Assembly (NCBI GenBank): GCA_964450605.1
Contig: CAYVEK010000001.1
Location: 8,430-72,429 of the forward strand
Length of the DNA stretch: 64,000 nucleotides
Direction: 5' to 3'
From: an uncultured Candidatus Saccharibacteria bacterium
GTDB lineage: Bacteria > Patescibacteriota > Minisyncoccia > Phycocordibacterales > CAIZLB01
Shown here piece by piece: positions 25,781 to 62,169 of this stretch. Position numbers and translations under genes: made by a program. Position 1 is the stretch's first letter. Every line of letters begins with the position of its first letter. The notes beneath the pieces were generated by a model that saw nothing but the letters and a program-made list of their open reading frames with translations, ran no database searches and was not told where the DNA came from.

Positions 25781-28760
<2,980 letters not shown>

Positions 28761-28767
28761 ACCGTGC

Positions 28768-29003
28768 AAATAAAAACCCGCCCTCAGTCGTTCTTTGTGT
28801 GCTTGTTCGATACCCAAACCAAATATGCACTGAAACGAAAGAGGGACGGGCTCCATTTGAAAGAGGGGGTACCTACTAAACACTGATCTGTAGCCGCAAG
28901 CAACCAATAACGGTTCCAAATGCTCTGGTTCATCAGCAACCCCTCTTTCTCCCGAAAGTTCTTGTTACATATAATCATAGTGTGTTTATGACTTATATGC
29001 AAA
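28768..29003 (-). ncRNA. candidate structured RNA (second of two minus-strand transcripts in the tgt/dnaE spacer)
   Basis: Minus strand: long-range helix AAAGAGGGG/CCCCUCUUU; 3' helix CCCGUCCCUC (28841-50) / GAGGGCGGG (28777-85) followed by UUUUUAUUU; no credible ORF. Confidence 0.3.
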
Positions 29004-29141
29004 TAAAAAAAGGACCGCATCGCGCGTTTCCACGCGATGCGGTTGGAATTCGGGTCACAGGCGAAGTGACCCAAATCCACTTTTGGAACGGCCCGGCGAC
29101 CAAACCGGGACCGTTGTTCCTCGTTACCAACAAAGTGCTGT
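29004..29141 (-). ncRNA. candidate small RNA (about 138 nt, three GC-rich hairpins) with own promoter and terminator
   Basis: Minus strand: hairpins GGAACAACGGUCCCGG...CCGGGCCGUUCC and GGGUCAC-uucgccu-GUGACCC; terminator CCGCAUCGCG-uggaaacg-CGCGAUGCGG (10-bp perfect stem, 29016-29043) then UCCUUUUUUUAUUU; no start codon or ORF in the transcript. Confidence 0.5.
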
Positions 29142-29146
29142 CAACA

Positions 29147-29175
29147 AGTATAACCTTGCGGTTAAGTATTGTCAA
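29147..29175 (-). promoter_or_regulatory. near-consensus sigma70-type promoter for the candidate sRNA
   Basis: Minus strand TTGACA (29175-29170), 17-nt spacer, TATACT (29152-29147). Confidence 0.5.
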
Positions 29176-29185
29176 CATATTGTGT

Positions 29186-29223
29186 AAAAAAATGAACCCG
29201 GGGGAACCTGTGTCCCCCCGGGT
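29186..29223 (-). terminator. intrinsic terminator of dnaE
   Basis: Minus strand GACCCGGGGGGAC-acag-GUUCCCCCGGG then UUCAUUUUUUU. Confidence 0.6.
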
Positions 29224-29318
29224 CTGGCAGCTGGGAGAAAGTCTGACCTTAATCCCTTCGCACCAAGCGGTGGACGGATGGGCAGCTCCAGCATCTATTT
29301 TGTATCATATCCAAGATA

Positions 29319-32300
29319 TCATGTCAATCTCTTCGCATGCTCATACACCAACCCCTTTTTATCCTCACGTTCAGACACTTTTCCTTTGAGAACGATACAG
29401 GCTTCGTTTTGTATGATGGCTCGAGCATCAGCTACCTGCTTAGGGAAGACAACAACCTCTATCTCTCCAGATAAATCCTTGAGCGTAAAGAAAATAATTT
29501 TTTTCATCGGGTCTTTTTTTGTTGGAATCTCTTTGACATTTTCAACGATCCCTCCAAGTATGTATGTTTTTTCTTCTTTTCCTTCAACTTTTACTTTGGC
29601 TATGTCAGTATCACGACTTTCTAAAATCTTTCTGTATTTATCAAGCGGGTGGCCTGAGATATAAAAACCAAGCAATTCTTTTTCCCACACCAAGTATTGC
29701 TGTTTCTGCGAAAAATCAATTTCTTTTTTAGCATGAACAGTTGTTGTTTCTTTAACAGGTTCTGTTTCAGCAAATAAACTAAAAAGATCTCCTTGTGATA
29801 CATCTTTTTTTGCTTGCTCTCGGTTATAGTCTAGATAACGATCAAGATTATCGAGAAGTTCCATACGATCTCCAAAAGAATCCATAGCACCTGATTTTAT
29901 AAGTGCTTCCATAGATTTTTTATTTAAACTTCTTTCTTGTATTCGTTCGAGGAAATTTTCTATTGTAGTAAATGGCCCATTGTTTTTTCTATTTTCTATA
30001 ATCACATCAGCTATAGCTTCTCCAAAGTTTTTAATACTATATAAACCAAAACGTATAGCATCTTTTTGGACACCGTCCACTTCTTGATAATTTTTAACAA
30101 CGGTAAATGTTCCAAAACTTTCATTGATATCTGGTGGAAGTATAGCGATACTCATACGTCGACACTCTTTTATAGATATAGCTACCGCATCAGTATCTCC
30201 GGCCTCAGCACTCAATATGGCGGCCATGTACTCACTAGGGAAGTTAGCCTTTAGATATGCGGTTATATATGAGACTCGTCCGTACGACACTGAGTGCGCT
30301 TTGTTAAATCCATACGCGGCAAATGGTTCAATCCATTTCCATACATCACGTGCTTTTTGATCAGACCATCCACTATGAGACACGCATCCTTTGATAAATT
30401 TTTCTTTTTGTAAGGCCATCTCTTCAGGAATCTTTTTACCTACAGCTTTTCGAAACTTATCAACTTCACCCCAACTGTATCCCGCGATCTTGTGAGCCAT
30501 CATGAGCAAGTCATCTTGATACACAAGCACTCCATATGTTTTATACAAAATCTCCTCAAGCAGAGGATCGGCATAGGTGATAAGGGAAGGGTTATGTTTT
30601 CGCTCTATATACAACGGGATGAACTGTATGGGTCCAGGTCGATACAAGGCAACCATGGCGTTGATGTCGTGTATTGTCGTTGGTTTAAGTTCAACGAGGT
30701 ATTTTGTCATACCTTCACCGTTTAATTGAAAGAGATCTTCAGTTTCTCCGCGTGCGAGAAGTTCAAATGTTTTTTTATCATCAAGAGGTAAGTTATCGAT
30801 ATCAAGATCAATACCAAAATTTCTCTTAACCATCTGTTTACACTCGAAAATAATTTTCAAGTTTTTTAATCCCAAGAAGTCGAATTTCAAAAGACCGGCT
30901 TCCTCGATAGAGTACATGTCATACTGACTGATGATTTTATTTTCACCTTTTGTATCGTACTGAAGAGCTGTAAAATCAGTAAGCTCTGTGGGAGCTATAA
31001 CCACTCCAGCTGCGTGTACAGAGATGTGACGTGCACAACCTTCAATCTTCTGTGCCATATCTATGATAGTCTTTACATCTATATCTTTCTCGTAGAGTTC
31101 TTTAAGTTCAGGTGTTATTTCAAGTGCGTGTTCTATAGTCATCGGGAAACCTTGAGATCCCATCGGTATGAGTTTAGAGATCTGGTCTCCGAGTGAGTAT
31201 GGATATCCAAGTGCTCGCGCTACATCGCGCACACTTCCTTTAGCAGCCATCGTTCCAAATGTTCCGATCTGTGCCACTTTATCTATGCCGTATTTTCGAC
31301 GAGCATAATCCACCATGTCATCACGTCTGTTATCGGCGTAGTCCATATCGATATCCGGTGCAGAAGGTCGTTCCGGGTTCAAGAAACGTTCAAAAGGAAT
31401 CTGGAATTCAAGAGGGTCTATGTGAGTAATACCAGATAGATATGTCACCATAGATCCAGAAACAGAACCTCGAATGTTTGAGAGGATTTCGTTTTCTTTT
31501 GCAAATGCCAAAAGATCAGACACAATCAAAAAGTAAGGAGAATATCCTTTTGTTTTAATAACTTCAAGTTCGTATTCAACTCGTTGTAAAACTTCAGGTG
31601 TTTTTTCGACATTTCTTTTTTCAAATCCTGCATACACAACATCTCTCAAAGCTTCATCAGCATTTTTTCCTTCAGGAAGTTCTATTTTAGGAAATACCCA
31701 TTTACCAAGTTCTATAACCACATCGCACATATCAGCGATTTTTGTAGTATTTGCAACTGCTTGTTTGAACAGTGTGTCGAGTTCTGGATTTTGTTCATCT
31801 GAAAAAAGTTCATCAACACGAGTGGGGGAGATAAAAGAATAATCAATATCATCTTCTGTAAAACGTTCAGGAGAGTTTGTTTGTACAGACATCATTGTTG
31901 ATCGAGCCTTTTTGTCTTCAGGATCCATGTACAGCACATCGTTTGTTGCAACCGGCTGTATATTGTATTTTTGTATAAAACGTAATACCCGTGATTCGAT
32001 TTGGTTGTCGTCCACGATTTCATTATGGCGAGTTATCTCATAAAACACATTTGGAGCCCCGTATGTATTTTGTAAAAAGGTAAATTCTTTAAGTGCAGAT
32101 TCTTCATCGTCCATCTTGAGCGCATCGGTGACTTTACTATGCAAAAAGGGGACAATGCATATAAAATCGGAATTATATTTTTGTATCAGCTCTGCATCTA
32201 TTCGAGGTTTATAGTAGTAACCTTCGAGGTTTGAATCTGTAACAAGTTTTATAAGATTTAAATATCCTTGGTAGTTCTTTGCCAGCAAAATATGTCGAGT

Positions 32301-57875: not shown

Positions 57876-57903
57876 TTGACAGGTTATCTTTATGTTGTAT
57901 ACT
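57876..57903 (+). promoter_or_regulatory. near-consensus sigma70-type promoter upstream of the island-3 gene
   Basis: TTGACA (57876-81), 16-nt spacer, TATACT (57898-903); about 65 nt upstream of ATG 57970. Confidence 0.4.
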
Positions 57904-59049: not shown

Positions 59050-59121
59050 CGCGCGGGGCACAGCCACAGACGACACCTACACGGAACACCGCCCCAACTG
59101 GCGCGGTGTTGCAGAAAAACG

Positions 59122-59166
59122 AAACCGCCGGGGTCCTTCATTGGATCCCCGGCGGGTTTTTTCGTT
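59122..59166 (+). terminator. intrinsic terminator of the island-3 gene
   Basis: CCGCCGGGG-tccttcattggat-CCCCGGCGG, 9-bp perfect stem, then GTTTTTTCGTTT. Confidence 0.65.
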
Positions 59167-60564: not shown

Positions 60565-60643
60565 AATGCTTGTATTATATAGCTTTTTTAACTGTTTGTC
60601 AAGTTATACAAAGTGCTATAATACCCCCGTAGAAAAGACACCT

Positions 60644-61324
60644 ATGGCAACAGAAATATTCAGCGCTGACGAGAAAAAATTCATTAAAAAGCTTATAAAA
60701 TGGGGCTTAATTATTGTTGTAGCCATAGCCGTACTTTCTGGTCTGTCTCAGGTAATAAATGTCTATCAAACAGAAGGTTCTGCAGGGTTAAAAAGACTTG
60801 TTACAGACGGAGAAGACCTTGCAACGCTTCAAGCTGTAAATGGCGGTAAAAAGGTAGAGTCTATAGTAGGTATTCAGTCAAATACAGGAGAACTTCCATT
60901 GTCCATAGAAGTTCCATCACTAGGTATTCAATCAAATATACAATCACCAGTAGTTCAAACTGTAAAAGTGCTAGATGACGCTCTTAATAGAGGTCCTGTA
61001 TACTATCAAGGATCCGGAACACCGGGTGAAAGAAATATGCTTGTGTTTGGTCACAGTACCGGCTTTAGTATTGTTCGAAATAAAGCATATCAAGTATTTA
61101 ATAATATAAAGAAAGCTCAGGTGGGTTCATACATATATATAAGGACGACAAGCGGTGTTCATACATACAAAACGGTAAATGTACGTCGAGCCAGCAAGTA
61201 CAGTACGTGGGTTGATTTTAATAGCTCAAAACCTATGTTGACATTAGCCACATGTGATAGCTTTGGTAAGGCTTCCGACCGTTGGGTACTCGAGGCAGAG
61301 TATATAGGTTTTGAGAAACGATAA
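60644..61324 (+). CDS. sortase-family transpeptidase
   Basis: N-terminal TM; catalytic His (LVFGHSTG), TLxTC motif (LTLATCDS) and Arg (RWVLEAEY); start trimmed to ATG 60644. Confidence 0.7.
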   Translation: MATEIFSADEKKFIKKLIKWGLIIVVAIAVLSGLSQVINVYQTEGSAGLKRLVTDGEDLATLQAVNGGKKVESIVGIQSNTGELPLSIEVPSLGIQSNIQSPVVQTVKVLDDALNRGPVYYQGSGTPGERNMLVFGHSTGFSIVRNKAYQVFNNIKKAQVGSYIYIRTTSGVHTYKTVNVRRASKYSTWVDFNSSKPMLTLATCDSFGKASDRWVLEAEYIGFEKR

Positions 61325-61364
61325 GTTCTTGCCTTAAAATCCTTATCGTGCTATATTATTTCTC

Positions 61365-61670: not shown

Positions 61671-61697
61671 TTGCTTGTAATAAATATTTTGTAAAAA

Positions 61698-61733
61698 ACT
61701 TTATCCGGTTGCACTATCGGATAAAGTTTTTTA
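61698..61733 (+). terminator. intrinsic terminator after rpsP
   Basis: ACTTTATCCG-gttgcactat-CGGATAAAGT, 10-bp perfect stem, then TTTTTT. Confidence 0.5.
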
Positions 61734-61772
61734 CAATTAGAGTATTACAAATAAAAACACGAATAAACACAT

Positions 61773-62030
61773 ATGACACTAGAAGAAGCAGATGTAGCAT
61801 TTCTAACATTTATCATCAAGTCAATGGTTGACAATCAGGATGCAGTAAAAGTAACACGAACAGTAGATGAGATGGGTGTGCTTTTGAATCTTGTAGTTGA
61901 TAAGGCTGATATGGGAAAAGTGATTGGAAGAGATGGTTCAACAGCAAAAGCAATTCGAACTATACTTCGTGTGTTTGGTATGAAAAATAATGCACGAGTT
62001 AATCTAAAAATTAACGAGCCTGCAGAATAA
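61773..62030 (+). CDS. KH-domain RNA-binding protein (YlqC/UPF0109-like)
   Basis: 85 aa with KH GxxG-type core (MGKVIGRDGSTAKAIRTIL); typical neighbour of rpsP. Confidence 0.7.
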   Translation: MTLEEADVAFLTFIIKSMVDNQDAVKVTRTVDEMGVLLNLVVDKADMGKVIGRDGSTAKAIRTILRVFGMKNNARVNLKINEPAE

Positions 62031-62058
62031 AGTTATACACATATAACGTAAAATACTG

Positions 62059-62088
62059 TTGACATCACTGTTGGCATAAAAGTATACT
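62059..62088 (+). promoter_or_regulatory. candidate sigma70-type promoter upstream of mreB
   Basis: TTGACA (62059-64), 18-nt spacer, TATACT (62083-88). Confidence 0.4.
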
Positions 62089-62169
62089 ATAAATGTTCTT
62101 TGCGAACTCGAAAATATCCGCCAAAAAGCGGGTATTTTTGTTTGTGAATATGTGCTATATTCAAGTCAC

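Follow-up and report, generated by a model that had tools for sequence, protein, structure and literature searches.

The minus strand of the spacer between tgt and dnaE in a Candidatus Saccharibacteria contig (CAYVEK010000001.1) carries what is best explained as a small RNA (sRNA) gene of its own. Within the 64-kb stretch of DNA analysed here (the window), the candidate comprises a near-consensus promoter, a predicted transcript of ~136 nt and a strong intrinsic terminator, called T2 below. About half of our confidence goes to the reading that this is a lineage-restricted, independently transcribed, stand-alone gene whose RNA would act in trans. The initial annotation had proposed a regulatory or housekeeping sRNA at this position, in the convergent tgt/dnaE spacer. 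Pfam confirms the identity of both genes, which are indeed convergent, and a stand-alone sRNA gene is still the best explanation; the housekeeping part of the proposal is unsupported, given the absence of an Rfam family, the lack of a homologue in 86 related loci and the spacers of only 26-114 nt in close relatives. The spacer itself measures 558 nt, the third in length among the intergenic regions of the window, and with a GC content of 0.48 it ranks first among those longer than 200 nt, in a window with a GC content of ~0.38.

The promoter is of the sigma-70 type and occupies 29147-29175 of the minus strand, with TTGACA at 29175-29170, a 17-nt spacer and TATACT at 29152-29147, matching the consensus at 11 of 12 positions. 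As the initial annotation had stated, it lies just past the dnaE terminator T1, beginning ~10 nt after a U run that ends near 29185. The window contains five sites that agree with the promoter consensus at 11 or more of the 12 positions, both strands being counted (128 kb), where 2.7 would be expected. Four of these lie between genes and are oriented toward the feature that follows, and two other intergenic promoters carry the identical TTGACA/TATACT hexamer pair. These oriented intergenic sites indicate that the organism uses consensus promoters, and the site at 29175-29147 resembles one. The further near-consensus intergenic promoters, each in the correct orientation, are found at 60574-60602 (minus strand, 12/12), 57876-57903 (plus strand, 11/12) and 62059-62088 (plus strand, 11/12); the TATACT -10 box recurs in two of these three.

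From the position of the -10 box we infer that RNA polymerase would start near 29140, and the transcript would run on the minus strand to the U7 of T2 at 29011-29005. The predicted RNA has a GC content of 0.56 and a minimum free energy (MFE) of -70.3 kcal/mol, compared with -44.2 ± 4.1 kcal/mol for 200 dinucleotide shuffles (z = -6.4), none of which was as stable. Its layout would consist of a largely unpaired 5' tail of ~25 nt, two very stable internal hairpins (H1 and H2) and the terminator hairpin. The tail, CAGCACUUUGUUGGUAACGAGGAAC (29116-29140), is mostly unpaired according to the computed unpaired probabilities. H1 (29087-29115, -17.4 kcal/mol) exposes the 8-nt loop UUUGGUCG at 29104-29097, and its apical 18 nt at 29109-29092 read CCCGGUUUGGUCGCCGGG, that is, CCCGG-UUUGGUCG-CCGGG. 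H2 (29044-29079, -19.9 kcal/mol) has 13 bp, one bulge and the loop UUCGCCU. The terminator T2 (29005-29043) is built on a hairpin at 29043-29014 (-25.4 kcal/mol) with a GGAA/GAAA loop, after which come CC and the U7. The GC-rich hairpins described earlier are therefore present; they are three in total, with the terminator as the third rather than as an addition to three, and its stem, previously given as 10 bp, has 13 pairs, nine of them G-C.

The RNA appears to be non-coding. It had been said to contain no AUG or plausible open reading frame (ORF); formally, a 61-codon ORF starting with ATG (29178-28993) overlaps it, but this ORF reads through the terminator, and Pfam gave no match for any ORF overlapping the RNA, which leaves no credible one. 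A promoter of its own, an intrinsic terminator of its own and no coding potential, all as predicted from sequence, are what a stand-alone sRNA gene should have. The 5' tail and the exposed H1 loop are the probable interaction surfaces; acting in trans, the RNA would either base-pair with a second RNA or use the H1 loop to bind a protein.

Known RNA families and related loci

The initial annotation had not recognised the RNA, and a covariance-model scan agrees. At gathering scores, Rfam 15 identified a single tRNA in the whole window and nothing for the RNA, the models for 6S RNA, signal recognition particle (SRP) RNA, RNase P, transfer-messenger RNA (tmRNA), riboswitches and preQ1-I, -II and -III included; the preQ1 classes gave no match despite the adjoining tgt gene. 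When the threshold was relaxed to E <= 10 over 28600-29500, five matches to unrelated families appeared, whose scores of 10-19 bits fall far short of the gathering scores (37-101); the RNA remained uncovered except for a plus-strand match of 15.4 bits to the snoRNA model SNORA68 on the terminator. ARAGORN found neither a tRNA nor a tmRNA at the locus.

Two housekeeping RNAs were also compared by shape. In 6S RNA, one long irregular helix of ~180 nt opens at its centre into a large bubble that imitates an open promoter; the RNA of the window does not fit, its 136 nt being predicted to fold into three separate hairpins of 29-36 nt without such a bubble. The small SRP (4.5S) RNA is one long hairpin with a GNRA tetraloop at its apex, next to the conserved internal loops, one symmetric and one asymmetric, that mark domain IV. 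It does not fit either, since the only GNRA-like loop here, GGAA/GAAA of T2, tops a perfectly paired 13-bp stem without internal loops and there is no Rfam match.

We compared the region with 86 syntenic loci of relatives (labelled L below), whose DnaE proteins are at most 74% identical to that of the window. Searches of these loci with nhmmer and blastn, using the RNA and the whole spacer as queries, returned no homologue, so that the related-genome search proposed at the outset came back empty; searched against the window itself, neither query revealed a repeat. These empty searches, taken with the variable spacers of close relatives, indicate that the RNA is not a housekeeping RNA. No closer relatives were found: the genome collection, in which the best DnaE matches are metagenome-assembled genomes labelled Patescibacteria, Paceibacteria or Parcubacteria, stopped at 74% identity, a metagenome scan gave six loci at no more than 74%, and the protein database reached no more than 58%. 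These DnaE matches place the window in an uncultured, Paceibacteria-like bacterium of the candidate phyla radiation. Exact look-ups of TGT (with two possible starts) and of DnaE had no match.

The convergent arrangement of dnaE and tgt is limited to the closest group (L052, L081, L082, L002, L003 and L084), in which the dnaE-tgt spacers range from 26 to ~345 nt or contain an inserted ORF. Within this group L081, the closest relative over the compared C-terminal segment of DnaE (69% identical), has a unit of the same design. Its promoter, TTGACA-16-TATGAT (11/12), overlaps the dnaE stop codon and precedes a predicted RNA of ~150 nt with three hairpins (z = -7.6), followed by a terminator that lies 30 nt from the tgt stop codon; beyond this terminator there is no ORF, only the end of tgt. 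Of the 84 loci scanned, L031 is the only other one in which a promoter, RNA and terminator follow dnaE, and its unit is unrelated. A covariance model with the window RNA as its single sequence, run with filters off on the seven closest loci, placed the L081 locus on top (18.5 bits, E ~0.004), in an alignment that covers the 5' segment and the terminators and that, by our own reading, includes two compensatory stem changes. The 5' segment was aligned with L081 4203-4227 both by the covariance model and by MAFFT. In addition, the first hairpins of both RNAs show the UUUGGUCG loop, on unrelated stems; the chance of such a loop-in-loop coincidence of 8 nt is estimated at a few per thousand over the loci examined. 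The 5' tail, the segment common to the window and the only related locus, and the exposed H1 loop are the parts of the RNA most likely to be functional. Altogether, homology between the two RNAs is plausible, if weak and not collinear.

Several results weigh against the sRNA gene as we read it. Hairpin conservation in relatives, which had been named as a check on the proposal, largely failed: the window and L081 have only their 5' segment, their terminator and the H1 loop of 8 nt in common, whereas the hairpin stems and the order of the elements differ. The L081 match amounts to a 25-nt segment plus the terminator, and H1 follows the shared segment in the window but precedes it in L081. With default filters and all loci as the target (985 kb), the same single-sequence model recovered only its query and missed L081. 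Other close relatives lack the unit, the spacer being 26-45 nt in L002 and 114 nt in L082 and holding different hairpins in L052. A search of the 64-kb window for target sites of the CGACCAAA type found none at gene starts. Finally, three very stable, near-perfect hairpins with little internal-loop structure would fit an array of terminators or insulators as well.

Terminators and a second module in the spacer

The strongest competitor, rather unlikely in our judgement but the main rival to an sRNA gene, is that the spacer holds a stack of terminators with an incidental promoter. The minus strand of the spacer can be divided into three modules, A, B and C, each with a terminator at its end, and module B is the candidate RNA. 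Module A (29185-29318) is the structured 3' untranslated region (UTR) of dnaE (fold z = -3.1) and ends in T1, with a stem at 29224-29195 and a U7; a match to skipping-rope RNA within it (16.9 bits, against a gathering score of 36.7) is taken as chance. Module C (28765-29003) comprises a weak promoter-like site, a 49-codon ORF and a long-range stem with a U run, T3 (~28858-28768), which stops 5-8 nt short of the tgt stop codon. The stack of T1, T2 and T3 would shield the convergent thrS-tgt operon from transcription of the dnaE strand and might also provide stable 3' hairpins to read-through RNA from tgt, while the promoter would be fortuitous or yield a by-product without function.

The arrangement of the spacer gives this explanation some weight. 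Three minus-strand terminators fall inside 460 nt, no plus-strand terminator was found in the spacer 3' of tgt, and L052 likewise has several hairpin modules ending in terminators, without sequence similarity to those of the window. The length and content of the spacer seem free to vary among relatives, from 26 to 558 nt. The stems are also near perfect, like that of a bidirectional intrinsic terminator at 59118-59166 of the window, where an A run, a 14-bp G+C-rich stem and a U run separate convergent genes, which shows that, AT-rich as the genome is, its terminators normally have perfect GC-rich stems. The promoters speak against an insulator array: an 11/12 site on the right strand of a 558-nt spacer is expected ~0.01 times (from 2.7 per 128 kb of strand), and a second, independent 11/12 promoter occupies the same place in L081. 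Moreover, T1 alone already ends dnaE, and the hairpins H1 and H2, lacking U tracts, are not terminators.

The genes around the spacer, as identified with Pfam, are tyrS (minus strand), thrS (plus strand, 25781-27526), tgt (plus strand, to 28760), dnaE (minus strand, 32555-29319) and a DsbA-like gene (minus strand). In the window thrS forms an operon with tgt, facing dnaE; the two ORFs overlap by 20 nt unless tgt starts at 27528. In 54 of the 86 related loci (L004-L079 range compared), thrS instead follows dnaE on the same strand, a difference in placement that implies rearrangement. Other long intergenic regions of the window (60565-61364, 800 nt; 1731-2306, 576 nt; 61671-62151, 481 nt) are of ordinary GC content and have no Rfam match.

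Module C raises a further alternative, which we consider improbable: the promoter would serve the 49-codon ORF (28933-28784, minus strand), with the hairpins and T2 forming an attenuator or a riboswitch-like 5' leader. The ORF has an in-frame ATG at 28933, which had gone unmentioned in the initial annotation, with a good Shine-Dalgarno sequence, on the same strand and 70 nt past T2, and module C possesses its own terminator; between T2 and the ORF there is only a weak promoter-like site, TTTGCA-18-TATGAT (29003-28974, 9/12). An attenuator needs an alternative to its terminator, and on reading the sequence we found no upstream segment able to pair with the 5' arm of T2, itself a very strong terminator. 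The ORF itself also speaks against this reading. The Shine-Dalgarno sequence GAAAGAGGGG is locked in a 10-bp helix with CCCCUCUUUC, which lies inside the ORF 60 nt downstream, and the ORF has no homologue in the 86 related loci, no Pfam match and, among 1.84 billion representative proteins, nothing beyond matches inflated by repeats, to large proteins unrelated to it (HYR, CBM96, NHL); a conserved small protein was rejected on these grounds. L081, moreover, has the RNA and yet no ORF or gene downstream.

A type I toxin-antitoxin pair was tried and rejected as well. The 49-aa product lacks a hydrophobic stretch of the length of a membrane helix, leaving the sequestered Shine-Dalgarno sequence as the sole feature of module C that resembles toxin mRNAs. 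Nor does the RNA look like an antisense of module C, the best duplex having -71.1 kcal/mol compared with -74.8 ± 5.6 kcal/mol for shuffles. The missing antiterminator, the strength of T2, the absence of a downstream gene in L081 and the lack of excess complementarity to module C together make both a cis-regulatory and a type I toxin-antitoxin role unlikely. Module C may be a second non-coding transcript instead of a gene.

The H1 loop in viral contigs

The apex of H1 recurs outside the bacterial loci. Its 18-mer, CCCGGTTTGGTCGCCGGG, has exact matches in 34 IMG/VR contigs that represent seven unrelated contexts with GC contents of 0.38-0.66. In all 34 the stem extends outward beyond the 18-mer, and most show a U-rich tail. 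Two control 18-mers with shuffled loops matched three and two contigs, all in ordinary, apparently coding sequence without stem extension. A similar picture emerged for the 14-mer CGGTTTGGTCGCCG and a loop-shuffled 14-mer, for each of which the first 120 stretches were taken: six or more further stem pairs were present in 8 of 90 contexts with the true loop and in 0 of 101 controls, against ~0.25 predicted for chance extension; we count this enrichment in favour of the sRNA gene. By inspection, the stems that bear CGG-UUUGGUCG-CCG reach 7 bp or more in at least 13 contexts unrelated to one another in sequence. When, conversely, the stem was held constant and any loop allowed, the loops found differed in nearly every context. 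The H2 17-mer had only three chance coding matches in viral contigs, and T2 was likewise not recurrent (chance matches or none).

In several of the viral contigs (L087, L092/L114, L135, L186) the hairpin is part of a short promoter-to-terminator unit of 60-95 nt with a variable, often CU-rich body. The hairpin, which recurs at loci L087-L120 and L126-L242 (for example L092 2863-2880, L114 13010-13027 and L100 3215-3265), is often itself the terminator of such a promoter-driven unit. In one phage family, typified by L100, a divergent intergenic region contains a tandem pair of hairpins that both present the identical loop of 8 nt (L100 3195-3275). Its further members are L090, L095, L096, L101-L103, L105, L107, L113, L115, L118 and L119; their stems differ and covary (CAGCGG/CUGCUG or CCGCUG, and CCCCGG/CCGGGG), and the element encodes a DnaQ-like exonuclease and a zinc-finger ORF. 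In L089, L098 and L127 the hairpin stands between co-directional genes, with CGACCAAA on the coding strand.

A further unit was seen in low-GC phage contigs, at ~1625-1745 of L237 (plus strand) and in the matching regions of L218, L131 and L182. In this conserved stretch of ~95 nt, which is devoid of ORFs, a -10-like box is accompanied by a UUUGGUCG-loop hairpin, by AAAGGAGGU as a perfect Shine-Dalgarno-like sequence and by a terminator with a covarying stem. It adjoins a tmRNA, a GOLLD RNA and a group I intron, all Rfam matches, and is itself not in Rfam. More generally, an Rfam scan of 15 hairpin-bearing viral loci covered none of the hairpins with a family, and no common neighbouring gene family or tRNA was found beside them. 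BLAST of the phage two-hairpin unit against GenBank phages, E. coli genomes and plasmids gave no match, and a literature search for the loop sequence string retrieved only irrelevant small interfering RNA entries.

The recurrent UUUGGUCG hairpin is the one feature of the locus that might be new. We propose, as a tentative and on present evidence doubtful idea, that the H1 apex belongs to an undescribed, widespread motif with a variable G+C-rich stem, a CGG/CCG closure and the UUUGGUCG loop, common to the sRNA candidate of the window and many unrelated phages (GC 0.31-0.66), in which the loop would serve as a recognition module for a partner shared by different hosts. Candidates for this partner are a kissing RNA, a synthetase or other protein that binds tRNA anticodons, and, at the DNA level, a T7-type primase; the loop contains TGGTC, a recognition site of such primases, a resemblance to which we give little weight.

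The shared apex also raises the question of a mobile or phage-derived origin, in which a GC-rich unit, a cassette remnant or cargo, was put into the dnaE-tgt spacer by horizontal transfer. Such an event would explain both the phage-shared hairpin and the patchy distribution, and several observations point that way: the RNA is GC-rich within a genome of 0.38, presence or absence varies among relatives, and the H1 18-mer is identical to hairpins that in several viral contigs sit inside 60-95 nt promoter-to-terminator units. The similarity to the viral loci, however, ends at the 14-18 nt of the hairpin apex, BLAST of the window RNA against GenBank phages gave no match, no repeats, integrase or transposase were found nearby, and other terminators of the genome are equally GC-rich. 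A transferred cassette accordingly seems quite improbable to us.

The least probable of the alternatives, and in our view a very unlikely one, is that the RNA mimics a tRNA anticodon arm and binds an aminoacyl-tRNA synthetase in the style of the E. coli thrS operator. In that translational operator, two anticodon-arm-like hairpins with 7-nt loops containing NGU lie in the thrS 5' UTR beside the ribosome-binding site and are bound by the ThrRS dimer. In the window, a UUGGUAA loop (on a possible 5-bp hairpin at ~29133-29117) and UUUGGUCG would imitate the anticodon loop of tRNA-Thr(GGU), or that of tRNA-Pro(UGG), and a thrS regulator would survive here as a relic or in a trans-acting version. 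Since thrS comes after dnaE in most of the related loci, this spot would be where the upstream region of thrS lay ancestrally. The 5' end of the RNA, AGCACUUUGUUGGUAA, is similar to UAGCAUUUGUUGGCUA at the apex of operator domain 4; the loop of domain 2 has the same UU-NGU format; and the tandem same-loop hairpins of the L100 phage family are reminiscent of two operator domains. These resemblances were, however, spotted by eye and post hoc, with p ~0.02-0.03 each before correction for the search. The loop has 8 nt and not 7, its register is ambiguous between Thr and Pro, and the UUGGUAA hairpin is missing from the MFE structure. Neither the dnaE-thrS spacers of relatives nor the thrS leader of the window itself contains such a hairpin, and the phage hairpins are not accompanied by genes for tRNA-Thr, tRNA-Pro or a synthetase. 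In the window, moreover, thrS is encoded on the opposite strand, so that the RNA lies neither upstream of it nor in its 5' UTR and overlaps no ribosome-binding site; the RNA ends in a terminator, and conservation gives the likeness no support.

Other threonine-related resemblances were noted in passing. In the thrL-thrA leader of E. coli K-12 (L366 207-238), CGACCAAAGGTAACGAGGTAACAACC ATG holds the exact complement of the H1 loop, CGACCAAA, and the GGUAACGAGGUAACAAC that comes next nearly copies positions 13-30 of the RNA (16/17), probably a coincidence. At ~8440-8470 of L004 (plus strand), the thrS leader has a 6-bp hairpin whose 7-nt loop, CUACCAA, displays the Thr codon ACC; the ACCAA of that loop is complementary to the UUGGU of the H1 loop in the window. 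We attach low weight to all the threonine- and primase-related resemblances, found as they were post hoc and by eye.

Nearest characterised systems

An sRNA gene acting in trans, the reading we prefer, has its nearest counterparts among generic bacterial trans-acting sRNA genes, which have their own sigma-70 promoter, a length of 50-300 nt and an intrinsic terminator and are lineage-restricted. The candidate shares with them the self-contained promoter and terminator, an intergenic position without an ORF, stable hairpins, an unpaired 5' segment, exposed loops and fast turnover between related genomes; it differs in being dominated by long, near-perfect stems. We know of no experimentally characterised sRNA in Patescibacteria, and a literature search also gave nothing on such sRNAs.

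H1 itself invites comparison with the recognition hairpins of CopA, Sok and RNA-OUT. The YUNR U-turn is a motif of antisense-RNA recognition loops, and the H1 loop contains UUGG, which fits this type (Y-U-N-R); as in those RNAs, a stable stem bears a loop of 6-8 nt with such a sequence. In the window, in L081 and in the viral contexts the loop is kept while the stems change, again as in YUNR recognition hairpins. Unlike in those systems, neither a target loop complementary to H1 nor such a site in an mRNA was found, and the orientation of the phage hairpins to neighbouring genes is mixed.

The way in which the locus stands out from its genome is also familiar. As far as their accounts of candidate discovery go, surveys from the Breaker laboratory find structured non-coding RNA candidates through GC-rich, long intergenic regions (PMC6429828, PMC8632094, PMC11109978). 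The window spacer would be flagged by the same signature, having the highest GC content among the regions above 200 nt and the third greatest length in an AT-rich genome. The motifs presented in those accounts rest on covariation across many representatives, whereas the window RNA has a single, weak relative. Most likely, the RNA is an orphan sRNA candidate, an ordinary kind of object, that belongs to no known family.

If the H1 loop does have a specific partner, it would represent a new portable recognition element, in RNA or possibly in single-stranded DNA, that is used across very different hosts. Regulatory RNAs of the candidate phyla radiation have, to our knowledge, hardly been studied, and an sRNA gene with a testable promoter and terminator would offer an entry point to them.

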